Shown here: positions 616-60,296 of the stretch, one piece after another
Numbering within the stretch: position 1 is the stretch's first letter
How the letters are laid out: every line of letters starts with the position of its first letter
NCBI GenBank assembly: GCA_038087875.1
Contig: CM075993.1
Coordinates: 11,410,001 to 11,474,000 of the forward strand
Length of the DNA stretch: 64,000 nt
DNA from: Malacoraja senta
Lineage: Eukaryota
Direction: 5' to 3'
Program-made: the position numbers and the translations under genes
Notes under the pieces: model-generated
Told to the model about the DNA's origin: nothing
Databases searched by the model: none
The model's input: the letters and a program-made list of their open reading frames with translations, nothing else

Positions 616-1875
616 AACGAGCTCCCATTATATTATTAAATTCAAAAGTTCAATTTGCTTTCATTTGTTCGCTCCTATGAACATCAGAACTAGTTTCATT
701 TCCCTCTCTCCACTTCTAGTAATTGTTTTTATCTATGTGCTTTTGATGCCATTCGTTACAATAATGTGACGGTATTGTGACCATAATGAATGATCTTTGT
801 GTACTTTTGAACAATATAAACATGGACATCTGTAAAAACAGTGCCAATTCTTTAGCCAGGGAGAGGCCATATTGCCATCATCTTGTATACATTTGTGAAG
901 CTAATGTCAATCTGAAGAAGACTCCTCACGTGAAACAATATATTTCCATTTCGCTCCAAAGATGGTGCCTGACCCACTAAGTTCCTCCACCACTTTTGTT
1001 CAAGATTCCAGCACCTGCAGCCTCTGGTGATTCCCATTATCACCTTCTTTACATATAATATTCCAACACTGGCAACTATTGTGTCACTTCCTGCCAACCA
1101 CAGTTCAGCAGGTGCATCCACCTTCACCCTCCCTTTATGCAGCTTCATCTGCCTTCTTTTCTTCTCTTCTCTCCCCTGTCCCACAATCCATCATTCACCA
1201 GCCTATGCATCCAAATTCCACCCCATCCCCTCTCCTACTTGGCTCCAAATGCTCGTCATGTTTCAGCCTTTCCAGGTCCACCATTCATCTCTCGCCACTG
1301 TCTCACCACAAGCTCTCTCCTCTTTATACGGGCTCTCTCCATACTTGAACCTGAAGCTGGATTTCCACCCCAAAATTTGACCGTTCCTTTCCATTCACAG
1401 ACGCAGCTCAACTTGCGAGTTCCTCCAGCGGACTGTTGATACAATGAAGCTATACAATATCTATATAACTAAAGGTCTCATCTTGACCACTTCCTGTCTG
1501 CGCTGTATATTGATTTTAGAATAAACGCTACCATATATCGTTATGATTTTTGGCCATTTTACTCAGTCCTCCTCCGCTGACGCAGCCCCAAGGATTTTTC
1601 CGATTGATGAAAAATAAAAAAGTTATGAGTGTTTAAAAAATCTTGAGATTAACTGATTGGTCCTCTCGCCTGTCAATCACCACGATGAAGGTAATGTCCC
1701 TTCCGGGGGGGGGGGGGGGGAGCTGGACTATAAAATCCCGGATGCCTGGATGTGAGTCAGTCACTCTGGAAGATCGCGAGGGAGAGTCCACAACTGTGCT
1801 TCTAAACTGTGAATCAACTGAACTGTGAGTCTGCAATGTACTTGCCCTTAATGACAATGCAATGAGTTGTTTAGC

Positions 1876-2030
1876 AATTTGGTGGCCTGCACTCTGCTTG
1901 AAATGCTATGAAATTGAATTTGGTGGCCTGCACTCTGTTTGAAATGCTATGAAATTGAATTTGGTGGCCTGCACTCTGCTTGAAATGCTATGAAATTGAA
2001 TTTGGTGGCCTGCACTCTGCTTGAAATGGA
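1876..2030. repeat. 41-bp tandem repeat (about 3.7 copies) inside the Helitron
   Basis: aatttggtggcctgcactctgcttgaaatgctatgaaattg repeated. Confidence 0.9.
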
Positions 2031-2049
2031 ATTTCAAGGAATAGCCATG

Positions 2050-2303
2050 AGTGAACTACCAGCCCACCAGCCCTGTGTGACTGAGCTGCCAGCCCACCAG
2101 CCCTGAGTGACTGAGCTGCCAGCCCACCAGCCCTGAGTGACTGAGCTGCCAGCCCACCAGTCCTGAGTGACTGAGCTGCCAGCCCACCAGGCCTGGGTGA
2201 CTGAGCTGCCAGCCCACCAGGCCTGAGTGACTGAGCTGCCAGCCTACCAGGCCTGAGTGACTGAATTGCCAGCCCACCAGGCCTGAATGACTGAGCTGCC
2301 AGC
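2050..2303. repeat. 30-bp tandem repeat (about 8 copies) inside the Helitron
   Basis: gtgactgagctgccagcccaccagscctga repeated head to tail with no spacers. Confidence 0.95.
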
Positions 2304-2519
2304 ACAATAACCCATTCGGCCCACAATGTCCATACTAGCCCTCTGGAAACCAGTCCCTTTGGCCCACAACACCCATACCAGCGCTCCAGAAAGCTCCCCC
2401 CCCCCCCCCACTGGCCACCAATATTGGAATTGGTGGAGAGGTGGAATATTGCGTTGGGGGACTAGCCCTCCCGTGTGAACATGGGACCCGATGGGTCCCA
2501 CTTAGTCTAGTATTATTAT

Positions 2520-3080
2520 AATGTCATACAGCACGGAAACAGGCCCTTCAACCCAGCTTGCCCAGGCAGACCAAGGTACACCAATTACACTAGTCCCACC
2601 TGGTGCGTTCAGGCCATATCCCTCTAAAACTTTTGTATCCATGTACTTGTCCAAATGTTTTTTATGTGTTGTTATAGTTTCTGCCTCAACTACCTCCTCT
2701 GACAGCTCATTCTATATACCTACTCTGAATTTAAGACTGCACCTACCCACTACAAGAAATGAAGCTGAAAGTATGGTCTTTTTGCCAGGGTAGGGGAATT
2801 AAGAACTAGAGGGCATATGTTTAAAATGAGAGTGGAAATATTTAATAAGAACCTAAGGGGTACCTTTTTCACAGAGGGTAGTGGGTATATGATACGAGCT
2901 GCCAGGAGCAGTAGTTCAGGCAAGCATAATAACATTTCATATGTGATGGACAAGTGCATGGATAGGAAAGGGTTAGAGAGATATGACCAAGCATGGGCAA
3001 GTGGGACTAGCCAAGATGGGGTATCTATTTCGGCATGGACTAGTATGGCCAATGGGCCTGTTTCCATGCTGTAGAACTCT
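2520..3080. mobile_element. Two CR1 LINE 3' fragments in opposite orientation
   Basis: CR1 ORF2 C-terminal remnants (RG..FK, RGTFFT) and the 3' UTR motif gggcctgtttccatgctgta. Confidence 0.7.
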
Positions 3081-3344
3081 AATTGCGTAAAGAATCAGAG
3101 AATGGGACAATTATACATTTGTTGAAACTGTGGCAGCCTGTACTCCAGCCACTCCAGACTCCAGACAGCACACTGCTTTTGTTACCACATACAGCGTTAG
3201 CTCACCGGCCCAGTACTACTGCCACCTACTGACAATTTCCCAGGCATTGTTGTGTCTTGTACCTTGGCCAGAGGTAAGCAGCAAACTCACAGAGAACAAA
3301 GTGAGCCCAGTCAATACCAGTGACACGAATGGGCATCAAAACCG

Positions 3345-4211
3345 GAGGGCGGCGGCGCGGATTACTGCAGCGGCCCCTACAGCCTGTCTGTCTTTTTTTT
3401 ATTTTTGTCTAGTTAAATGTAGTTGTTTGTGGGGTTTTTTTGTACTGTATTAATTGTGTATATGTGGGGGGCCGGGGGGGGAGGGGGGAGGGGGAAACTG
3501 AAAAAAAATCTATTCCCTGCACGGGAGACCGGACCTTTTCCGTCGGGTCTCCGTTGTCGTTGGGGCCTAGCTCCGTGGAGCGGCCTCCGACCGGGACGAC
3601 CTGGGGGCTCCAGTCGCGGAGCCTGCGGAGCTGCGGACTCACCATCGTGGGGCTGGCTGGCCTCGGAGCGCGGGGAGCGGTGGTGACTCGTTGCTGCTCA
3701 CTCCGGAGCTCCAGCTCCAGCTGCAGACCAAGGACTGGGACATCGGGAGCTCGCGGGTCCGGGTGAGAGACCGCTTTCCGGAGCTCCCGCAACGCAACTT
3801 CTCCAGCTCGAGTCACGGGGTTGGAACGACCCGGAGCGGGGCCGTAAATCGCCCGGTGCGGCTTTAATGTTAAAGCCGCGAGACATTCCAGCGCCCGCCG
3901 GGGCACCAACTTTGTGACTTTTGGGCCCGGAGCGAGGCCGTACACAGCCCGGCGTGGCCTCAACGGCCGTGGGACTTAACATTGCCCGCCTGGGGCTTCA
4001 ACATCGGGAGAAAGATGGTGCAGGGGAGAGAAATGACTTTGCCTTCCATCACAGTGAGGAGGAGATTCACTGTGATGGATGTTTTTCTGTAAATTGAATT
4101 GTTTGTGTGTCGTGTAGGAATTGTTTTGTTTGTATGGCTGTGGAAACGGAGTTTCGTTTGAGCCTCTTTGAGGTTCAAATGACAAGAAATAAAATCTAAA
4201 TCTAAATCTAA
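3345..4211 (+). mobile_element. GC-rich non-coding retroposon with Rex1/Babar-like tail (copy A)
   Basis: Highly similar to 53455-54186. Ends in aatgacaagaaataaa(atctaa)n. Confidence 0.7.
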
Positions 4212-10481: not shown

Positions 10482-12557
10482 ATGGACAGGACCCGTACCA
10501 AGTCCAAACAGGCCGCTAAGAAACTGGCTGAGGAGGACCGCGGAAGTACCGGGAGCCAGCAGCGGCCGACTGCAGCATCGCAATCTTTGCGATCAGCGGT
10601 CTCTGTCCCGGCACCTGTGCAGCCTGGGTCGCCACAGGCTGACACGAACGGCAATAGATGGGACACGCTCATGGACTCCGATGTGTCGGGCCATGAGCAA
10701 ACCCCACCGGCAGACAGCGACAGTAGTCGCATTTTTTCACTTTTTTCACTTTCATTTTTTCACTTTTTTTTAATAGTTTCAGTGTGTCCAGTGTCTCGTC
10801 CGTTGGAGTAATCTACTTTTTAAATGTATGGTGAATGGGAGTAACTATATTCTAGGTCCCTACCTGGTCGGTGAGGCAGCTTTTTCTCCGGGCTGCCCCG
10901 TCGACCGGTCCTCGTGGCCTACCAGCGGGCATGGAGCGCCGTTTCCTGACGGGGACCGCCCAGCACCTCGGCTTCGGTGGCGGCACAGCGCTGGAGCGCT
11001 ATCGCTGAGCGGAGCGCGCGATGCCTTGCCTGGGTCGCCGCGCTGGATCGGCGCGCTGGAGCTCCAGTGAGCTGTGACCGCCGAGCTCAACACCTCCGGG
11101 CTGCGGGTCTGCGGAGAGGATCGGGCGGCGCCGACTTTAACATCGGGAGCCTGGGAGCTCCAAACCGGCGCGGCCTTGTCGGCTTCGGAAGCCGCGGCCT
11201 CCGGTAAGGAATGCGGTCGTTCCAGGTGGCCCAGCCGCTGAAAGGACTCTCCCGACGCCGGGGCAACAGCACCCGGTGAGAACGGCCAGGAACATCGGGC
11301 CTCCGTAGAGGCAATAGCGGAGGCCTCAATAGGCCTGACTTTGGGGAGAACTGGGGTTGGGGACTGGACATTGTGCCTTCCCCCACAGTGGTAACCATTG
11401 TGGGGGGATGATTTTTTGTGTGTACTGTCTATGTTAGACTGTGTCCAAGATGGCGGTCGGAAGGGAGAGTGGACGCTGGCGCGGTTTAGCTGCCGCTGCT
11501 CTCTCTTCACATTTTGTTTCTGAATTTTTTTGTTGTTGTTGTTTTTTGGATCGAATTTCTGTCTTTAATTTGTGTATTGGTGATGTCTTTATAACTTATT
11601 TTTACTCTGATTATATGTTTCTTTGTTAAAATTTTGTAAGGTGTCCTTGAGACCTTTGTATAGGCGCCCATAAATAAAATGTATTATTATTATTATTACA
11701 CGTCTGGAGCGGCTGGTGGAGCAATTGCTTCACCGTGACAAACTCCGTGAGCAGGAGTCAAGTCACTAAGGGCTTCCGAGGAAGCCCATGGCAGTACCTT
11801 TTTCAGGGTGCACAATGTATCTCCCTCGACAGAGGGGAGCATCGGGAGTCATTTCTGGGCTGACTCCGAACAAGGGTTGGCTGAAGAGACTTCAAGTGTG
11901 CTGAGGGTGCCAGAAGAGAAGATGCTGGGCATGGTGAAAAAGTTTGCGGTGCCTCCACAGTCAGGGCAGCCGCTGAAACAACAACTAGCAGCCAGCATTG
12001 ACTACCTATCAACCCATCAATTACAAGAACAGGCAGTTAATGAAACTACTGCAAAATACCTGGCACCAGGGAACTGTACTTCACTGAATGTCCCAGTAGT
12101 GAATCCCTCCATCTGGGGACATATTGGTGCAGGTGTAAGGGCACAGGAGGTACAAATGCAGAAAATCCTTAAACTTTTAACAACTGGGATTACAGCATTT
12201 GCCCGGTCAGTGGATGACACGGAAATGACAGAGGCGCAGCAAGATACGCTGGCGATGCTCTGCAATACTCAGTTTGAGATTAACTGTTTCCGTAAGAACT
12301 CCATCTGCCCAGCCTTGAACCCCAAATTTGCGGCTCTGTGTAAGACCAACACCACACCGCCGCCAATTTTGTTATTTGGGGGCAACCTGTCCAAACAGGT
12401 TAAAGACCTGGATGAAGAGGCGAAAGCCGGCGGGCTCATCAAGGCATCGGGGAAAATACCTCGGCGACAGCACCCCTACGCATCCACCAGCAGGCCACGT
12501 CACATCGAGCTGGTGAAAGCTCGAAGGCCGCAGCTCAAGGACAAAGGTCTTTTTTAG
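10482..12557 (+). pseudogene. DIRS gag-like ORF1, interrupted by an insertion and a frameshift
   Basis: MDRTRTKSKQ...SDSSR (10482-10730) rejoins in frame with TRLERLVEQLLHRDKLREQ (11698 onward). It continues in ORF 11808-12557 (P.NC..L.VP.VNPSIW motif). Confidence 0.75.
10732..11697 (+). mobile_element. GC-rich non-coding retroposon with L2-type tail (copy A), nested in DIRS gag
   Basis: Highly similar in reverse to 44561-45525. Tail tgtaaggtgtccttgag...aggcgcccataaataaaatg(tat)n. Confidence 0.8.
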
Positions 12558-12689
12558 ACCGCGGCCCAGAGCGACCTTCGTGGAAGATGCGCCAACCCGA
12601 ATACCAGCACCTCAATCGGCCAAGAAGCAGAAGAAAAAGAGATGAACACCCCACTGGTAACCATGGAGGTAGGTGGGTCTGGATCCTCG

Positions 12690-14592
12690 CAGGACTTAGC
12701 GGGTGCAATGGGTACACTTGTTGGTGGTGGGTTACACTGGTTTAGTGAGGCATGGAGATCAATAACCTCTGATTCTTATATACTGCATAGTGTTCATGGG
12801 TATGAAATTGAATTAGAAAACAACGCCTTCCTCCGGTTCAGCATGCGCCCATCAGATCATTTATTCTATCACAACAAGAGAAGTTGGATGGTAATGCTGA
12901 AATTAAGAGGTTTATACTAAGGGTGTAATTGACAGATCTCAACATGAGTCTCAAGAATTTGTGTCAAACATGTTCACAAAAAAGAAAAAGATGATGGATG
13001 TCGCAGCATTATTGATTTAAGACAATTTAACACATTTGTGCAGTATACTCACTTCAAAATGGAAACCTTTGTCACGGCCAAACAATTGATTTCCGAAGGC
13101 TACTTCATGGCATGCATCGATTTAAAAGATGCATACTATTCGGTGCTCATACACAAGGATCACCGCCGATATCTGAAGTTTAACTGGATGGGGCAGCTTT
13201 GGCAGTACAAAGCACTACCTAATGGGTTGACCTCAGCCCCCAGATTATTCACTAAATTACTGAAACCAGCTATGGCGGTTCTTCGGAAACAAAAACATAT
13301 AGTCATGGCGTATTTAGATGACATACTAATCGTGGGTAAAACCTACGAATTAGCCTATTTAGCTGTTACAGCTACCATAGGTCTATTTCAGAAACTGGGG
13401 TTTATCATACATCCAGATAAATCAAAGTTAACACCATCCACGACTATGGATTATTTGGGATTCACCATTAATTCAGTTCACATGACTGTGACTTTACCTA
13501 GGGGAAAGGCAACTGAATAATGGAAGTTTGCAGCAACCTTGCTGTCATCAGTCAACCATCTATCAGACTAGTAGCAAGGGTAATTGGCAAAATCGTAGCT
13601 GCTTTTCCAGCGACACACTTTGGACCTTTGCACTATCAAACGTACAGAGAGCAAAGGTGCGAGCACTTAAACATCATGCTGGTCATTTCGATAGACCAAT
13701 GCAATTACCAACAAAAGCTATTTTGGAACTGCGATGGTGGACACATAACATTCGCCATTCCTACAGCTCCATTATTATTAGCAACCCGTCAGTTGTATTA
13801 CAGACTGATGCCAGCGCTCAAGGTTGGGGAGCCACCAACACCATCTCCAGTTGTGGGGCAGATGGGATGCGCATGAATCATCTTTGCTTTATACACTTGG
13901 TATAAATTATTTGGAAATGTTGGGAGCATTCTATGGTTTGAAGGCGTACTGTTCAAAAATGCATCATTTGCATGTTCGCCTGCAAATAGATAATACCACT
14001 GTGGTGGCTTATATTAATCACATGGGTGGAATCAGATCGATATCATGTGATGATCTTGCCAATTCAATCTGGCAATGGTGTATCCAGAGAAACATTTGGA
14101 TATCTGCTATTTACCTACCAGGTAAACTTAATTCAGTGGCAGACACCAGGTCACGGAAATTTAATGACAACACTGAATGGATGTTGGACCCCAAAGTGTT
14201 TGCAGATATCATAGCAAGATATGGAACACCAGATATCGATCTATTTGCATCTAGGCTTAACCACCAGTTGCCGACATATGTTGCGTGGGAACCAGACCCT
14301 GGGGCAGCAGCGATGGACGCATTTTCGCTGCACTGGGGAAATGTGTTTTTCTATGCATTTTCCCCCCTTCTGCCTCATCAGTCGGGTCTTACGCAAAATA
14401 CAACAAGACTCTGCGTCAGGTATTTTGGTAGTACCCGACTGGCCTACCCAGCCATGGTTCCCTGTGGTTCTCGACATGGTTTCAGAACCATGTATGGCCA
14501 TCACTAAAAGACCAGACTTGATGGTCCATCCTGTAACTGGCGAAAGTCATCCATGCCATGACAGGACTAATCTGTTAATTTGCAGAATTTGA
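12690..14592 (+). pseudogene. DIRS RT, RNase H and DNA adenine methyltransferase, frameshifted
   Basis: HFKMET, IDLKDAYYSV, LPNGLTSAPRLFTK, AYLDDILI; TDASAQGWG, INYLEM, QIDNTT, NSVADTRSR; IDLFASRLNHQLP, FPPF, VVPDWPTQPWF. Confidence 0.93.
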
Positions 14593-15562
14593 ATAGGCCA
14601 CTTCTGGATCTTGGACTGACGGACCGAACCATCAACATGATCGCGGCGGCACAAAGAGAGTCTACCAGAAAACAGTACCTAACTTACATCAGGAAATGGG
14701 AACGTTATTGTTCCAGGACTAATGTTGAGTATAACTCAGCCACTGTAACTAATGTCCTGGAGTTCCTGGCTAACCTTCATTTTGATGAAAGGCTTAGCTA
14801 CAGTGCCATCAACCGCGCCAGGAGTGCCCTATCCACCTATTTGTGGCGGGGATTTGACCACCATTCACTGGGGTCTCACCCCATGGTTTCCAAACTAATG
14901 AGGGGTATATTTAACTCGAATCCCCCTAGGGCAAGATACTCTAACATTTGGGATGTGAGTATTGTGTTGACGTTGCTTCGGGGTTGGTCACCAGCAACGT
15001 ATCTGTCCTGGAGAAACTTACCCTTAAATTGGTAATTCTGATGGCACTGGTCTCGGCCCAGCGGGTGCAATCGCTACACAAATTACGACTGGATTCGATG
15101 GCCAAAGGGACAAATGATATAACTTTTTATATTCATGAACTGGTAAAACAAAACAGACCAGCGTCATCAGGCCTTAAACTAGAGTTTCGGGCATACCCTA
15201 CAGATGTTCGCTTATGCGTTATGACACATCTGTTACTTTACATAGAACTATCAGCTAAAGTAAGAGACAAAGAATTGGCACTTTTAGTGAGCCACAAAAG
15301 ACCTCACAACAGGGTATCGACCCAAACAATATCTAGGTGGCTTTGACAGGTTTTGGGAGCTGCAGGGGTGGATACTGATATTTACAAATCTCATTCCACC
15401 AGGGCTGCAGCCACATCGGCAGCACGGCACATGGAGGTTCCAATGGATCACATCTTGGGTACGGCAGGATGGTCCAGGGAGAAGACCTTCCAAGAATTTT
15501 ATAATAAGCCAGTTGCTAAACCTGTGACTTTTGCAGATACTATTTTGAGTTCTGTTTTATAA
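14580..15562 (+). pseudogene. DIRS tyrosine recombinase with one frameshift and one internal stop
   Basis: N-terminal STRKQY..YIRKW and LSYSAINRARSALS. Catalytic motifs SAQRVQSL, HSTR and AGWS...FQEFY. Confidence 0.92.
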
Positions 15563-15954: not shown

Positions 15955-16154
15955 NNNNNNNNNNNNNNNNNNNNNNNNNNNNNNNNNNNNNNNNNNNNNN
16001 NNNNNNNNNNNNNNNNNNNNNNNNNNNNNNNNNNNNNNNNNNNNNNNNNNNNNNNNNNNNNNNNNNNNNNNNNNNNNNNNNNNNNNNNNNNNNNNNNNNN
16101 NNNNNNNNNNNNNNNNNNNNNNNNNNNNNNNNNNNNNNNNNNNNNNNNNNNNNN
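15955..16154. other. Assembly gap (200 N)
   Basis: Run of N. Confidence 1.
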
Positions 16155-35839: not shown

Positions 35840-36545
35840 AATATATCCAGAAGATAAGCACAAAAAGCTGGAGTAACTCAGCGGGATAGGCAGCATCTCT
35901 GGAGAGAAGGAATGGGTGACGTTTCGGGTCAAGACCCTTCTTCAGACTGGTTAGATAAGGGAAACGAGAGATATAGACGGTGATGAAAGATATGCAAAAA
36001 AAGTAATGATGATGAAGGAAACAGGCCATTGTAAGGTTAACTCATCCCTTCCCACACAATCCAGCCCCTCCCAAGGTACCTTCCCCTGCAACCACAGCAG
36101 ATGCAACACCTGTCGCTATACCTCCTCCCTCGACTGTCCAAGGACCCCAACAGTCCTTTCCGGTTAGGCAGAGGTTCACTTGCACCTCCTCCAAGCTCAT
36201 CTACTGTATCCGTTGTTCAAGATGTGGACTCTTATACATCGGCGAGACCAAACGCAGACTGGGCGATCGTTTCCAGGAGCACCTTTGCTCAGCCGGCATG
36301 AAGCAACCTGATCTCCTGGTTGTTGGACACTTTAATTCTCCCTCCAATCCTACACAGGCCTTTCTGTCCTCAGTCTCCTCCATTGTCAGAGTGAGGCTAA
36401 ACACAAATTGGAGGAACAGCATCTCATATTTCGCTTAGGCAGCTTACAGCCCAGTGGTATAACTTTTGATTTCTCTAACGAAGTAACCCTGGCATTCCCT
36501 CTCTCTCTCTCCATCCTTCCCCCACCCAAGTCGCACCAGCTTAAA
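35840..36545. mobile_element. Penelope-like element: inverted terminus (minus) plus GIY-YIG 3' fragment (plus)
   Basis: Reverse hammerhead motif at 35918-35945. GTFPCN..RC.TC..YIGETKRRLGDRF.EHL..LEEQHLIFRLGSLQPSG. Confidence 0.85.
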
Positions 36546-40564: not shown

Positions 40565-40830
40565 GGCACCCGCGCGCACAGCCGTCAACCGCCGTCAGGC
40601 AGGTCGCGGGCACCCGCGCGCTCAGCCGTCAGCCAGGTCGCGGGCACCCGCGCGCACAGCCGTCATCCGCCGCCAGCCAGGTCGCGGGCACCCGCGCGCA
40701 CAGCCGTCAACCGCCGTCAGCCAGGTCGCGGGCACCCGCGCGCACAGCCGTCAACCGCCGCCAGCCAGGTCGCGGGCACCCGCGCGCACAGCCGTCAACC
40801 GCCACCAGCCAGCTGGCGGGCACCCGTCAA
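40565..40830. repeat. 44-bp GC-rich minisatellite, about 6 units
   Basis: Unit ccaggtcgcgggcacccgcgcgcacagccgtcaaccgccgycag starts at 40633, 40677, 40721 and 40765, with partial units on both sides. Confidence 0.95.
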
Positions 40831-48790: not shown

Positions 48791-49317
48791 CTACACTCTA
48801 AGTTGGTTATGGCACAGATCAATTCCTGCTCCAGCAATGTCCTGGATTTACTTCAATCTGGCTATTGCCACAACCGGTGACTAGATCTCCCGGCTGACCT
48901 TTCTGTCCTAGGTCTCCTCCGTTGTCAGAATGAGGCTAAACACAGATACACAGGAGGAACAGCATCTCATATTTTGCTTAGGCACCTTACAGCCCAGTGC
49001 TATAAATTTTGATTTCTGTAACTTCAAGTAACCCTGGCATTCCCTCTCTCTCCATCCCTCCCCCACCCAAGTCGCACCGGCTTCTCGTTGTCACCCAACA
49101 AACAAGCTAACAATGGCCTGTTACCTTTATCATCTTTATTTTTTTGCATATCTTACAATCATTGTGCTGTGTTCAATCACAGTAGAGTTACTGCCTTACA
49201 GTGCCAGGGTTCGATCCTGCCTGTGGGTGATGTCCGTACGGAGTTTGTATCTTCTCCCCGTGACTTGTGTGGGTTTTCTCTGGGTGCTCTGCTTTCCTCC
49301 CACATTCCAAAGACGTA

Positions 49318-50921
49318 CAGTGGCTTGCAAAAGTATTCATACCCCTTGAACTTTTCCACATTTTGTCACGTTACAACCACAAACGTAAATGTATTTTATT
49401 GGGATTTTATGTGATAGACCAACACAAAGTGGTGCATAATTGTGAAGTGGAAGGAAAATGATACATGGTTTTCAAATTTTTTTACAAATAAAAAACGGAA
49501 AAGTGTCGCCTGCAAAAGTATTCAGCCCCCCTGAGTCAATACTTTGTAGAACCACCTTTCGCTGCAATTACAGCTGCAAGTCTTTTGGGGTACGTCTCTA
49601 CCAGCTTTGCACATCTAGAGACTGAAATTTTTGCCCATTCTTCTTTGCAAAATAGCTCAAGCTCAGTCAGATTGGATGGAGAGCGTCTGTGAACAGCAAT
49701 TTTCAAGTCTTGCCAGAGATTCTCAATTGGATTTAGGTCTGGACTTTGACTGGGCCATTCTAACACATGAATATGCTTTGATCTAAACCATTCCATTGTA
49801 GCTCTGGCTGTATGTTTAGGGTCGTTGTCCTGCTGGAAGGTGAACCTCCGCCCCAGTCTCAAGTCTTTTGCAGACTCTAACAGGTTTTCTTCCAAGATTG
49901 CCCTGTATTTGGCTCCATCCATCTTCCCATCAACTCTGACCAGCTTCCCTGTCCCTGCTGAAGAAAAGCATCCCCGCAGCATGATGCTGCCACCACCATG
50001 TTTCACAGTGGGGATGGTGTGTTCAGGGTGATGTGCAGTGTTAGGTTTCCGCCACACATAGCGTTTTGCATTTAGGCCAAAAACTTCAATTTTGGTCTCA
50101 TCTGACCAGAGCACCTTCCTCCACATGTTTGCTGTGTCCCCCACATGGCTTGTGGCAAACTGCAAACGGGACTTGTTATGGCTTTTTTTCTTCTTGCCAC
50201 TCTTCCATAAAGGCCCGATTTGTGGTGTGCACGACTAATAGTTATCCTGTGGACAGATTCTCCCACCTGAGCTGTGGATCTCTGCAGCTCCTCCAGAGTT
50301 ACCATGGGCCTCTTGGCTGCTTCTCTGATCAATGCTCTCCTTGCCCGGCCTGTCAGTTTAGGTGGACGGCCATGTCTTGGTAGGTTTGCAGTTGTGCCAT
50401 ACTCTTTCCATTTTCGGATGATGGATTGAACAGTGCTCCGTGAGATGTTCAAAGCTTGGGATATTTGTTTATAACCTAACCCTGCTTTAAACTTCTCCAC
50501 AACTTTATCCCTGGCCTGTCTGGTGTGTTCCTTGGGGTTCATGATGCTGTTTGTTCACTAATGTTCTCTAACAAACCTCTGATGCCTTCACAGAACAGCT
50601 GTATTTATACTGAGATTAGATTACACACAAGTGGACTCTATTTACTAATTAGGTGACTTCTGAAGGCAATTGGTTGCACTGGATTTTATTTAGGGGTATC
50701 AGAGTAAAGGGGGCTGAATACTTTTGCACGCGACACTTTTCAGTTTTTTATTTGTAAAAAAATTTGAAAACCATATATCATTTTCCTTCCACTTCACAAT
50801 TATGCGCCACTTTGTGTTGGTCTATCACATAAAATCCCAATAAAATACATTTACATTTGTGGTTGTAACGTGACAACATGTGGAAAAGTTCAAGGGGTAT
50901 GAATACTTTTGCAAGCCACTG
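49318..50921 (-). mobile_element. Tc1/mariner DD34E transposon, Passport-like, full length (copy 1), inserted in an HE1 SINE
   Basis: TA|cagtggcttgcaaaagt...acttttgcaagccactg|TA. TIRs of about 210 bp with inner direct repeat tgcaaaagtattca at 49326 and 49511. Confidence 0.97.
49536..50542 (-). pseudogene. Tc1 transposase, frameshifted by a 13-bp deletion near 50190
   Basis: HTH region and [27 protein letters not shown] with 34 residues between the second D and E; ends KGGSTKY*. Confidence 0.96.
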
Positions 50922-51062
50922 TATAGGATTGTAGGCTAATTGTCTTGGTAAAATTGCAAATTGTCCCTAGTGTGTAGAATAGTGTTCGTGGATTGCTGAT
51001 CGCTGTGGACTAGGTGGGCCAAAGAGTCTGCTTCCACGCTGTATCTCTAAACTAAACTAAAC

Positions 51063-54186: not shown

Positions 54187-54729
54187 AAAAGCCTCTTAAA
54201 GGCCTTGTTGTATCTGCCTCCAGCACGTTCCAGGCACTCACCACGTGTAAAAAACTTGCCCCTCATATCTCCTTTAATCTTTGCCCCTCTGACCTTAATG
54301 CTGTGCCCTCCAGTCTTTGATATTTCCATCAATAATAAAAGGCTCTGCCCTATCTATGCCTTTCATAGTACTGTATACTTCTATCAGGTCTCCTCTAATC
54401 CTCTGATGCTCCAGAGAAAACAATCTCCAGTTTATCCAAACTCTCCTTATAGCTTATCCAGGCCTGCCACTGATTTTCCGGCAACTGGTGGTCTGCCTTC
54501 CTTTTTAATCTGGACATAATCCCTTCCAGGAAGCCCTCCCGAAAATGTGGCGCCGAGGCCAGGTGAGGAGGCCGATCTCGACTTCTCCGGGACTTCTGTG
54601 CCGATCGGCGGATCGAAGTTGCCCTCTGCAGCCAGGGCTTGGAACTTCATCCTGACCGGAGACGGCAGATCTGTTCCATGGCCAACTTTGCAGGTCGGTG
54701 TCTTGGAACATAGAACGGGCTGTGACCTC

Positions 54730-55724
54730 ATCTGAAATGTCCTCATTCTTCAGGGAACGGGGGTTCCCCTCCTCCACCATAGATGAGGCTCGCACCAGGG
54801 TCTCTGCCATACCCCGCAACACTGCTCTCTCTCCCCATCCCCCCACTCACAACAAAGGCAGAGTCCCCCTAGTCCTCACCTTTCACCCCACCAGCCGTCA
54901 CATACAACAAGTGATCCTCCGTCAGTTCCGCCACCTCCAACGTGACCCCACCACTCGCCACATCTTCCCATCTCCCCCTATGTCTGCCTTCCGCAAAGAC
55001 CGCTCCCTCCGTAACTCCCTTGTCAATTCTTCCCTTCCCTCCCATACCACCCCCTCCCCTGGTACTTTCCCTTGCAACCGCAAGAGATGCAACACTTGTC
55101 CCTTCAGTTCCCCCCTCCACTCCATTCCAGGACCCAAGCAGTCGTTCCAGGTGCGACAGAGGTTCACCTGCATCTCCTCCAACCTCATCTATTGCATTCG
55201 CTGCTCTAGATGCCAGCTGATCTACATCGGTGAGACCAAGCGGAGGCTTGGCGATCGTTTCGCCGAACACCTCCGGTCGGTCCGCAATAACCAACCTGAA
55301 CTCCCGGTGGCTCAGCACTTCAACTCCCCCTCCCATTCCGTATCTGACCTCTCTGTCCTGGGTCTCCTCCATGGCCACAGCGAGCAACACCGTAAATTGG
55401 AGGAAATGCACCTCATATTCCGCTTGGGCAGTCTACATCCTGGTGGCCTGAACGTTGAATTCTCCCAATTCTGCTAGCCCTGGCTGTCCCCTCCCCTTCA
55501 TCAGCCATCTGGTTGTCTCCGCCCCTCCCCCAACCCTCGGGCTCCTCCTTTTCCTCCTTTTCCTTTTTTCCTTTCTTCTCCCCACCCCCTATCAGTCTGA
55601 AGAAGGGTTTCGGCCCGAAACGTTACCTATTTCCTTCGCTCCATAGATGCTGCTGCACCCGCTGAGTTTCTCCAGCATTTTTGTGTACCTTCGATTTTCC
55701 AGCATCTGCAGTTCCTTCTTTAAC
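54730..55724 (+). mobile_element. 5'-truncated Penelope-like (Neptune-type) element with open GIY-YIG ORF, 3' hammerhead motif and 15-bp TSD
   Basis: Uninterrupted ORF to 55477: RGFPS..RVPLVLTFHP..CNRKRCNTC..NLIYCIRCSRCQLIYIGETKRRLGDRFAEH..HFN..GLN. TSD acgggctgtgacctc at 54715-54729 and 55725-55739. Confidence 0.93.
55594..55628 (+). ncRNA. Minimal hammerhead ribozyme motif in a Penelope pseudo-LTR (representative of several)
   Basis: CTGAAGA + aggg-tttcgg-ccc stem II + GAAACGTTA, with palindromic ACGT as minimal stem III. Confidence 0.65.
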
Positions 55725-57061: not shown

Positions 57062-57212
57062 CCAGTGCATGTTTGCACTGGAGTGCAGCTCCTCTGCATG
57101 CACAGGAGTGGAGCCCTCTGCATGCATTAGAGTGGAGCCCTCTGCATGCACAGGAGTGGAGCCCCTCTGCGTGCACTGGAGTGCAGCCCCTCTGCGAGCA
57201 CTAGAGTGCAGT
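57062..57212. repeat. TGCA-rich degenerate minisatellite, about 24-bp units
   Basis: gcactggagtgcagccctctgcat-like units. Confidence 0.8.
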
Positions 57213-57412
57213 CTATAACAACGAGCATCCATGTCTGTTCCCTGTGTACGGTCACGTGCATCGCTGCCTCTCCGGGGCTTTGGTGTGACCAGTGTGTGCC
57301 CAACTTCTGCCTCACCCACCAAACGCAGAGCTCAGTCCCTGCTGTCCACCACATGCGGCCATGCCGCTGGAAGCCAGAGTCAAACAGAGTGAGAATACTG
57401 ACTAGTACTTAC

Positions 57413-57442
57413 ATGTGTGCGTCTTCTTTGTGACGGATATGC
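57413..57442 (-). CDS. RORA: 30-nt phase-1/phase-1 coding microexon of a RORA-like nuclear receptor (equivalent to RORalpha1 exon 2)
   Basis: Minus strand reads ctttcttcctttcag|GCATATCCGTCACAAAGAAGACGCACACAT|gtaagt, with a canonical acceptor and donor. It translates to (G)ISVTKKTHT(S), matching recalled RORalpha1 GISVTKKTHTSQIEIIPC. The exact paralog is uncertain. Confidence 0.88.
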
Positions 57443-57514
57443 CTGAAAGGAAGAAAGCTGCAGGTCAGTACATTGTTCACAATATCTGCGTGATGACTCG
57501 TTAGATGGATAGAC

Positions 57515-57915
57515 TGCACTCCCGTGCACACGGGGGTGCACTCAAGTGCATGTCGGGGGTGCACTCAAGTGCATGTAGGGGGTGCACTCAAGTGCATGTA
57601 GGGGGTGCACTCAAGTGCACGTAGGGGGTGCACTCAAGTGCATGCAGGGGTGCACGATGCATGCAGAGGGCTACACACCATTGCAAGTAAGCGATGCACT
57701 TCAATGCATGCAGAGGGTCACACTCCATTGCATGCAGAGTTGCACTCCAATGCATGCAAGGTTGGCACCAGTGCTTGCAGAGGGCTCCAGCAATGAATGC
57801 AGAGGGTTGCACTCCAGTGCATGCAGAATGTTGCACTCCTAGTCTGCAGAGGGCTGCACTCCAGTGCATGCAGAATGTTGCACTCCTAGTCTGCAGAGGG
57901 CTGCACTCCAGTGGG
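57515..57915. repeat. TGCA-rich minisatellite (23-24-bp units), inverted relative to 57062-57212
   Basis: gggggtgcactcaagtgcatgta and gcagagggctgcactccagtgcat units. Confidence 0.85.
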
Positions 57916-58541
57916 CTACAACACTGCCAAAACAACTCAAATTTCACTGTTAAGTGACAATAAACTTGAACTTGAACTTTGGCACATCTGAATCAGGCGT
58001 TCTTTCACTTTGGCCTTTTAAAGTTCAGAAGGTGATCTCCCAGTTGATACTGACCGCTCAACACATCTTGTTTAAAACTATTCATCTGGTTTTGACAATA
58101 CTACTGCTTTTTCATGAAACAGTACAGCATGGGATGAGGCCCTTCAGTCCATGATGTCTGTGTCGAACATGATGCCAAATTAAACTAAACTCATGTGCCT
58201 GCACATGATCCATCTCCCTCCAGTCATGCGTATCCATGTTCCGAGCTAAAAGCCTCTTAAACACCACTATCATATCCACTATATCTGCCAACACATAACC
58301 CATATCCCTCCATTCCCTGCATATCCATGTGCATATCCAATAGACGTCACTATCCACCACCACCCCCGGCAGAGCATTCCAGGGCCCCACCACCCTCTGT
58401 ATAAAAAAGACATTCCCCACACATCTCATTTAAAATCTGCCCCTCTCACCTTAAAGTTATGTTCTCCAGTGTGTGACATTTCCACTCTTGGGAAAAGATT
58501 CCTCCTGCTTACCCCATCTATGCCTTTCATAATTTTATATA

Positions 58542-60066
58542 CAGTGGCTTGCAAAAGTTTTCATACCCCTTGAACTTTTCCACATTTTGTCACGTTACAA
58601 CCTCAAACGTAAATGTATTTTATTGGGATTTTATGTGATAGACCAACACAAAGTGGTGCATAATTGTGAAGTGGAAGGAAAATGATACATGGTTTTCAAA
58701 TTTATTTACAAATAAAAAACGGAAAAGTATCGCGTGCAAAAGTATTCAGCCCCCCTGAGTCAATACTTTGTAGAACCACCTTTCGCTGCAATTACAGCTG
58801 CAAGTCTTTTGGGGTATGTCTCTACCAGCTTTGCACATCTAGAGACTGAAATGTTCAAGTCTTGCCAGAGATTCTCAATTGGATTTAGGTCTGGACTTTG
58901 ACTGGGCCATTCTAACACATGAATATGCTTTGATCTAAACCATTCCATTGTAGCTCTGGCTGTATGTTTAGGGTCGTTGGAAGGTGAACCTCCGTCCCAG
59001 TCTCAAGTCTTTTGCAGACTCTAACAGGTTTTCTTCCAAGATTGCCCTGTATTTGGCTCCATCCATCTTCCCATCAACTCTGACCAGCTTCCCTGTCCCT
59101 GCTGAAGAAAAGCATCCCCACAGCATGATGCTGCCACCACCATGTTTCACAGTGGGGATGGTGTGTTCAGGGTGATGTGCAGTGTTAGGTTTCCGCCACA
59201 CATAGCATTTTGCATTTAGGCCAAAAACTTCAATTTTGGTCTCATCTGACCAGAGCACCTTCCTCCACATGTTTGCTGTGTCCCCCACATGGCTTGTGGC
59301 AAACTGCAAACGGGACTTCTTATGGCTTTTTTTCAACAATGGCTTTCTTCTTGCCACTCTTCCATAAAGGCCCGATTTGTGGAGTGCACGACTAATAATT
59401 GTCCTGTGGACAGATTCTCCCACCTGAGCTGTGGATCTCTGCAGCTCCTCCAGAGTTACCATGGGCCTCTTGGCTGCTTCTCTGATCAATGCTCTCCTTG
59501 GCCGGCCTGTCAGTTTAGGTGGACGGCCATGTCTTGGTAGGTTTGCCATACTCTTTCCATTTTCGGATGATGGATTGAACAGTGCTCCGTGAGATGTTCA
59601 AAGCTTGGGATATTTGTTTATAACCTAACCCTGGTTTAAACTTCTCCACAACTTTATCCCTGACCTGTCTGGTGTGTTCCTTGGGCTTCATGGTGCTGTT
59701 TGTTCACTAATGTTCTCTAACAAACCTCTGAGGCCTTCACAGAACAGCTGTATTTATACTGAGATTAGATTACACACAAGTGGACTCTATTAACTAATTA
59801 GGTGACTTCTGAAGGCAATTGGTTGCACTGGATTTTATTTAGGGGTATCAGAGTAAAGGGGGCTGAATACTTTTGCACGCGACACTTCAGTTTTTTATTT
59901 GTAAAAAATTTGAAAACCATGTATCATTTTCCTTCCACTTCACAATTATGCGCCACTTTATGTTGGTCTATCACATAAAATCCCAATAAAATACATTTAT
60001 GTTTGTGGTTGTAACGTGACAAATGTGGAAAAGTTCAAGGGGTATGAATACTTTTGCAAGCCACTG
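58542..60066 (-). mobile_element. Tc1 Passport-like transposon (copy 2); transposase 58760-59691 broken by three deletions; inserted in CR1
   Basis: TA-flanked, with the same TIRs and near-identical body as copy 1. Confidence 0.97.
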
Positions 60067-60296
60067 TACTTCTGTCAGCTCAGGTCGTGTACCAGCAGGA
60101 TGCTGCGTATCCTACCATTGAGCTCCTAAAGGAATTCAATGACTAGAAGTAAATCCTGAGTGAGTGAAAGACAAGTACAAATTATCAGTCCGAAAATTCA
60201 TTTTGCACATCTCCAAAAAATCAGATGATGTGCTATCCCAAGAATAATATTTCTGCACATAGCTCCAGTCTTTGAGCAAGTGATTGGAAACTTTAC

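Follow-up and report, generated by a model that had tools for sequence, protein, structure and literature searches.

Mutually inverted minisatellites flank a likely ROR-alpha microexon in Malacoraja senta and may form a tolerated RNA stem

Introduction

A 30-nt coding exon in the genome of Malacoraja senta lies between two minisatellite arrays that are rich in TGCATG and inverted with respect to each other, which raises the question of whether these arrays regulate the splicing of the exon or are tolerated beside it. The window analysed here is a stretch of 64,000 nucleotides (64 kb) of the assembly GCA_038087875.1 (contig CM075993.1, positions 11,410,001 to 11,474,000). A first-pass annotation of this stretch had proposed a repeat-built splicing switch, in which RNA pairing between the arrays loops out the exon or masks RBFOX sites.

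Results

The microexon and its likely gene

The exon (Table 1), which we take to be the second exon of the ROR-alpha1 isoform, is conserved and likely belongs to the ROR-alpha gene, the gene name being our own attribution; CTGAC in the upstream intron is a candidate branch point by its motif. No other ROR exon motif occurs in the 64-kb window, and a PDB search with the 20-residue open frame that holds the exon returned no match. The encoded peptide likewise has no match in the literature searched or in one supplement of PMC5553892, and differences between ROR isoforms are described as confined to the N-terminus (in the available part of PMC4750502).

Table 1. Positions of the exon, the two arms and neighbouring features in the window
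Feature	Position	Strand	Description
Left arm, downstream of exon	57062..57216		Minisatellite, about 6 units of 24-26 nt
Inner inverted homology, left side	57212..57230	plus	Non-repeat sequence, anchored alignment
Unique downstream intron	57217..57412	minus	GTAAGT donor, two GCATG pentamers at +49 and +57
30-nt coding exon	57442-57413	minus	Phase 1-1, peptide GISVTKKTHT, AG/GT splice sites
Unique upstream intron	57443..57508	minus	Pyrimidine tract, CAG acceptor, branch-point-like CTGAC at -26
Inner inverted homology, right side	57494..57513	minus	Non-repeat sequence, anchored alignment
Right arm, upstream of exon	57509..57915		About 17 units of 21-24 nt, opposite orientation
High-copy dispersed repeat, end	57934..57980		Adjacent to the right arm, separate from the feature

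The isolation of the exon in the window could mean that it is a captured, non-functional copy lying between repeat arms, with the real exon elsewhere. A second short contig of single-copy depth, which overlaps the acceptor and the start of the exon (~57431-57463) in organisms F and G and not in B (three of the related organisms compared below), can be cited for the same reading; it may be a paralogue, an allele or a chance overlap. Such a capture is nevertheless extremely improbable: in B the exon is covered by a single contig, none of the 40 of 84 variable places listed for the relatives is an exon substitution, the splice sites are intact, and very long flanking introns are what we would presume for a ROR-alpha gene.

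Around the exon itself, the stretch holding the branch-point-like motif (57471-57464) is predicted to pair with 57402-57395, just past the donor, in a small hairpin enclosing the exon. This hairpin is no better than those of shuffled sequences (88/500), and the same holds for the fold of the unique middle (123/150) and for the duplex formed between the unique parts of the two introns (237/500).

Two arms related by inversion

Repeat and inverted-pair searches bear out the first-pass claim of related arrays lying in opposite orientation on either side of the 30-nt exon. Tandem Repeats Finder places the left array at 57074-57208 (period 25, 5.5 copies) and the right array at 57515-57913 (period 23, 17.5 copies), and the arms begin 66 nt (upstream) and 196 nt (downstream) from the splice sites of the exon. 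Between 56000 and 59000 there are 68 inverted pairs, and most of the 25 listed link the left and right arrays, with an inverted arm-to-arm identity of 76-80% over 100-140 nt in several registers; the 18-bp reverse complement reported between 57172-57189 and 57851-57868 is exact. On the transcript the upstream tract is C-rich and the downstream tract G-rich.

Identity among the units is 0.76 between the arms, compared with 0.79 within the left and 0.73 within the right. Read outward from the exon, both arms open with six non-unit bases, identical in the two, and then the start of a unit, and the inverted similarity runs for ~20 nt inward into non-repeat sequence, with a score reached by 19/3000 shuffles and 9/3000 random window pairs. 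The outer ends of the arms have nothing in common (anchored score 3, reached by 328/500 shuffles). This combination—units alike between the arms, similar inner flanks and unlike outer ends—points to a common source in a single inverted duplication or ancestral stem, and away from two independent arrays or a terminal-repeat transposon. The inner homology itself fits a selected stem and a relic of duplication equally well.

A single locus next to a dispersed repeat

Contigs from four sequencing runs (X1, X3, X15 and X20; organisms A, B, F and G) were aligned at 80% identity, with about 88-92% covered in each; X1 is possibly the source of the window itself, and the four compared are among 22 of the 23 runs listed that contain part of the stretch, under 7 organism labels. 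Both arrays occur at the same single locus in all four, and in X3 one contig crosses the left arm and the exon and extends through most of the right arm. Every array bin in X3 is at or below the flank depth of 24.2, as against 3,244 reached in the adjoining dispersed repeat; in X15 most array bins are at or below 30, and two, at 68-75, are raised by overlapping pieces. The dispersed repeat (bins 57925-58006), with a summed depth of 1,209-3,591 and many loose ends compared with ~10-37 for unique sequence, serves as an internal positive control for dispersed copies: at 57934-57980 it is 50-150 times deeper than the arrays, summed depth being distinct from copy number, some records having been filtered out, and copies diverged to below 80% identity being able to escape. 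Within the 64-kb window no other copy of the arrays was found (best E 0.34).

Flank-level depth in four runs, seen beside so deep a neighbour, excludes a young dispersed family, though not diverged cousins. The arrays are therefore not a genome-wide satellite—the possibility that the first-pass annotation had set against its own proposal—at 80% identity or above in the window and the four runs. Rfam gave no match at gathering score in the window; three weak matches to miRNA models (E 0.38-0.95) lie far below their thresholds and were taken as chance.

These observations also bear on whether the arms could be remnants left on both sides of the exon by a mobile element, of foldback type or otherwise, or by an ancient dispersed minisatellite family. 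Foldback termini are similar in being repeat-built inverted arms, the surrounding intron is rich in mobile elements, and filtered or more diverged copies would have escaped the alignment. This origin is all the same improbable, since no further copies occur in the window or in the four runs covered to ~90%, the arms match at their inner and not their outer ends, which is the opposite of terminal inverted repeats, and what they enclose is a host exon, splice sites included.

Elsewhere in the window, two young copies at 49311-50925 and 58538-60073, ~96% identical over 1.2 kb and bounded by 215-bp terminal inverted repeats, carry transposase motifs by which we assign them, presumptively, to a Tc1/mariner-like family. 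Their terminal repeats also bracket the exon as inverted pairs (~7.6 kb apart, 96% identity), so generic inverted pairs around the exon are not rare. Overlapping ORFs at ~11750-15350, broken into several frames, presumably derive from a DIRS-type retroelement (reverse transcriptase, RNase H, recombinase), and those at 54656-55477 and 36016-36438 resemble Penelope-like elements at what we take to be their GIY-YIG end. From 24000 to 64000, 17/20 bins have a negative GC skew (cumulative -2.76), with mixed values before 24 kb, and an assembly gap of 200 N (15955-16154) lies far from the arrays.

Variation among close relatives and an orthologue with no arrays

The relatives differ from the window by ~3-8% in the intron, and across this divergence the arrays keep their place and orientation in 4/4 runs; a look at other species, which the first-pass annotation had recommended, thus finds the layout common to the related organisms B, F and G. 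In the right arm a 69-nt block is absent from B, F and G, and blocks of 47 and 22 nt are absent from F and G; in the left arm 25 nt are absent from B only, and G has a go-back joint. The number of left-arm units differs in B, F and G and also between alleles, X1 showing a 33-nt skip in one contig plus a gapped allele. Overall, unit numbers change independently between arms and between species, and motif-bearing units are gained and lost from one species to another.

Of the 40 variable places listed (from 84), 22 carry a difference from the window that B, F and G all share: 7 lie in ~322 array nt, 15 in 424 other intron nt and none in the exon (p=0.38, with covered lengths estimated from the listed pieces), and no pooled constraint on the arrays relative to plain intron is detected in B, F and G among the places listed. 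Taken singly, F shows lower divergence in the right arm than in the remainder (3.6% vs 7.4%, p=0.02), G does so marginally (p=0.07) and B does not (p=0.71), and the outer part of this arm has 1 and 2 differences in 96 nt in F and G; these tests count 35 nt beyond the arm in F and G, which are close kin, and use segments chosen post hoc.

A more distant comparison comes from a metagenome scan with the exon pattern, which yielded four loci, L001-L004. Three of them (L001, L003 and L004) are chance matches, with no pyrimidine tract and an unrelated first half, and L002 is taken to be a host vertebrate contig. The exon of L002 encodes the same peptide, with 6/30 nt different, all at third codon positions (4 of the 6 within the 14 nt left free by the search pattern), and judged by these letters is a true orthologue. 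No tandem repeat and no comparable inverted arms occur in 2000 nt upstream and 325 nt downstream of it, a range that would take in the starts of both arms; GCATG is absent from the 325 nt downstream, and no (U)GCAUG motif occurs in 800 nt upstream. Because L002 has the exon with no arrays, the exon is likely older than the arrays, as seen from this one outgroup.

Predicted pairing of the arms in the transcript

Folding of the transcript predicts 111 arm-to-arm base pairs, with a longest perfect helix of 14 bp. The MFE is -422.8 kcal/mol, compared with -360.1 when arm pairing is forbidden (a gain of 63 kcal/mol) and -364.8 when one arm is flipped; in this equilibrium prediction the arm duplex beats local folds, and, since flipping one arm costs stability, orientation counts beyond palindromic content. 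Loop-out by RNA pairing, as first proposed, is thus upheld at the level of a model: the arms are complementary, and the exon is predicted to lie in the loop of the stem. Among 43 sampled folding windows, the one overlapping the arrays ranks second, and the plus strand folds more strongly still (-447.4), as any inverted repeat permits.

A fold z-score of -9.8 was set aside, because any inverted repeat beats shuffles and a repeat near 40.5 kb folds equally strongly. This repeat is a GC-rich tandem array of 44-bp units (40565-40826), whose surroundings fold as strongly as the arrays that flank the exon.

Read in the register of the window, the 13 listed array substitutions comprise 3 that keep their partner, 5 that break it, 4 in unpaired places and 1 wobble, a count drawn from the 40 of 84 variable places listed and from arrays whose tandem structure makes the register ambiguous.

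It is against this predicted structure that a selected loop-out, independent of RBFOX, has to be weighed, that is, a stem kept in order to set the level of skipping or to help define so tiny an exon between introns of great length. We consider it unlikely. The energy gained by arm pairing, the layout preserved in 4/4 runs and the few differences in the outer right arm of F and G would all agree with it, as would the finding that looped-out human exons are less included, and more so with stabler stems (reported in the available part of PMC8052449). The arms are, however, unequal in length and change independently, two shared changes in the inner homology (57220 and 57495) are not mutually complementary, pooled constraint is not detected (p=0.38), the arrays are absent in L002, and the strand that is not transcribed folds even better.

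TGCATG motifs and the palindromic unit core

The minus-strand (sense) TGCATG motifs of the arrays, 7 upstream and 3 downstream of the exon, lie at exactly the ten places named in the first-pass annotation. They form a local cluster (10 in 900 nt vs at most 2 in any other 900-nt window), and the TGCATG count across the whole window is ordinary (55 vs 52 +/- 8 expected). No preference for the transcribed strand is seen, the two arrays holding 14 antisense (plus-strand) motifs beside the 10 sense ones (4 and 3 in the left arm, 10 and 7 in the right). All ten sense motifs are one half of the palindrome TGCATGCA, which is the core of the unit, and, since this core is palindromic, every intact copy yields TGCATG on both strands; where a core is half broken in the window, 4 keep the antisense motif only and none the sense motif only. 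The UGCAUG motifs are, in consequence, likely a by-product of the palindromic core.

Measured from the splice sites, the sense hexamers are 204-430 nt away on the upstream side and 263-311 nt away on the downstream side. Counting the two pentamers of the downstream intron, (U)GCAUG occurs in both flanking introns (7 upstream and 3 downstream hexamers, and 2 pentamers at +49 and +57).

The two pentamers (57364-57352) are better sited for RBFOX than the arrays are, and one of them is altered in organism B (57356).

RBFOX binding requires single-stranded RNA. In the full fold, UGCAUG is predicted to be paired at 0.70-1.0 for 8/10 motifs and at 0.5 for the remaining two, which are among the three downstream motifs, and the 7 upstream motifs are predicted to be paired at 0.73-0.99 already before the downstream arm is transcribed. 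Masking is thus predicted with or without arm pairing, which makes a switch dependent on an open state less plausible. The pairing-dependent masking of RBFOX sites envisaged at the outset consequently finds no backing in the model, where the motifs are paired whether the arms meet or not and no clear open state appears.

A switch in which arm pairing masks the 10 RBFOX sites, and RBFOX in brain or muscle competes with the stem to alter inclusion, is for us distinctly unlikely. It draws on the density of the sense cluster, on the half-paired state of two of the three downstream motifs, on the RBFOX motif and position rule (described in the available part of PMC8373071), and on the looped-out, RBFOX2-responsive exon of GPR126 (PMC8052449, available part). 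In addition, both substitutions that fall within TGCATGCA palindromes in the relatives (57143 and 57658, among the 40 of 84 places listed) leave the sense motif intact, for which the chance is ~1 in 16. Set against it are the excess of antisense motifs and the derivation of all sense motifs from the palindrome, the distance of even the nearest ones (204 nt upstream, 263 nt downstream), the predicted pairing of the upstream motifs even without a partner arm, the coming and going of motif-bearing units between species, and the lack of arrays at L002. Of the repeat-built RBFOX switch first proposed, the complementary arms and the predicted loop-out therefore stand; the RBFOX part is not supported, given palindromic motifs that show no strand preference and lie 204-430 nt off, arm lengths that change independently, the pooled comparison (p=0.38) and L002.

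Discussion

The reading that we favour, with somewhat better than even confidence, is a lineage-specific inverted duplication, expanded by slippage, which forms a tolerated RNA stem and serves no selected tissue switch. Here the mechanism by which the arrays originated, their neutrality and their effect on splicing are what we infer, and the stem is a prediction. A short TGCA-rich segment would have undergone one local inverted duplication onto both sides of the older exon, after which the two arrays would have grown and shrunk separately by slippage. In the pre-mRNA the arrays may pair in an imperfect stem, predicted at ~110 bp, that holds the exon in its loop; the effect of this stem would be passive and tolerated, amounting at most to some extra in-frame skipping (with 10 residues lost) and to a substrate for ADAR. 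The UGCAUG motifs would then be a by-product of the palindromic core and, according to the predicted fold, mostly buried in double-stranded RNA. What speaks against such neutrality is that the arrays keep their place and orientation in 4/4 runs, that the right arm is comparatively little diverged in F and, marginally, in G, and that both palindrome substitutions in the relatives leave the sense motif untouched.

A bolder reading, which we regard as a long shot, is that this copy-number-variable, lineage-born minisatellite pair tunes, like a dial, the splicing of a nuclear-receptor microexon of deep conservation. Both the stem and the RBFOX sites would come from the palindromic unit, and gain or loss of units would thereby shift the strength of the one and the number of the other in step. 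ROR-alpha is reported at the promoter of A2BP1 (RBFOX1) in human neurons (PMC4750502, available part), so that such a dial could close a feedback loop.

Several known systems resemble the locus in part. Exons looped out by complementary intronic regions are gathered in the PCCR catalogue, for example exon 24 of GPR126, where one arm carries an RBFOX2 site (as given in the available part of PMC8052449). As in those cases, complementary sequences in both flanking introns enclose an exon and an RBFOX motif overlaps the stem; in contrast, the catalogued pairings are short, conserved and non-repeat, with knockdown data, whereas the arms here are variable minisatellites, found in one clade as far as seen and known from sequence alone. 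RBFOX-regulated cassette exons with RNA bridges, such as ENAH (Lovci et al., cited through the available parts of PMC8052449 and PMC10790352), likewise have UGCAUG on either side of a small, frame-preserving exon. In such bridges, however, the stem brings a distant site near the exon, while the motifs of this locus lie within the stem, show no preference for either strand and were not found at the L002 orthologue.

Inverted pairs of Alu or other repeats flanking exons are associated with skipping, circular RNA and A-to-I editing (reviewed in PMC7404189, available part). The arms share with these an imperfect, repeat-derived duplex around an exon that arises without design, and differ from them in being a locus-specific tandem repeat placed 66 and 196 nt from the splice sites. 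An exon of 30 nt is likely too short to circularise alone. Complementary AC/GT tracts at intron ends in fish and lamprey (Lin et al.) and GC-rich stems around skipped exons (Miriami et al., both cited through the available part of PMC7404189) resemble the locus in that tandem repeats give the pairing, C-rich upstream and G-rich downstream on the transcript; yet each AC/GT pairing spans a single intron, and such tracts are found throughout a class of introns, whereas the pairing described here joins 24-nt units, spans an exon and is confined to one locus. All four kinds of arrangement (loop-outs, bridges, inverted Alu pairs and stems of simple repeats) have thus been described before, and what is unusual here is the closeness of the arms together with their locus-specific unit. 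Neither this locus nor a pair of UGCAUG minisatellites is described in the literature searched (mostly without subscription papers).

The arrays are real, locus-specific and common to close relatives, and, if functional, they would act as a repeat-built exon loop-out. If they are neutral, they offer a tidy example of how inverted repeats arise beside exons and are tolerated, and they warn against taking the number of UGCAUG motifs in palindromic repeats as evidence of RBFOX control. If, on the other hand, they alter inclusion, they would be a natural polymorphic test of how a stem and RBFOX sites supplied by one unit come to regulate an old exon; as the arrays already vary between alleles and species, a test of such added regulation would be straightforward.
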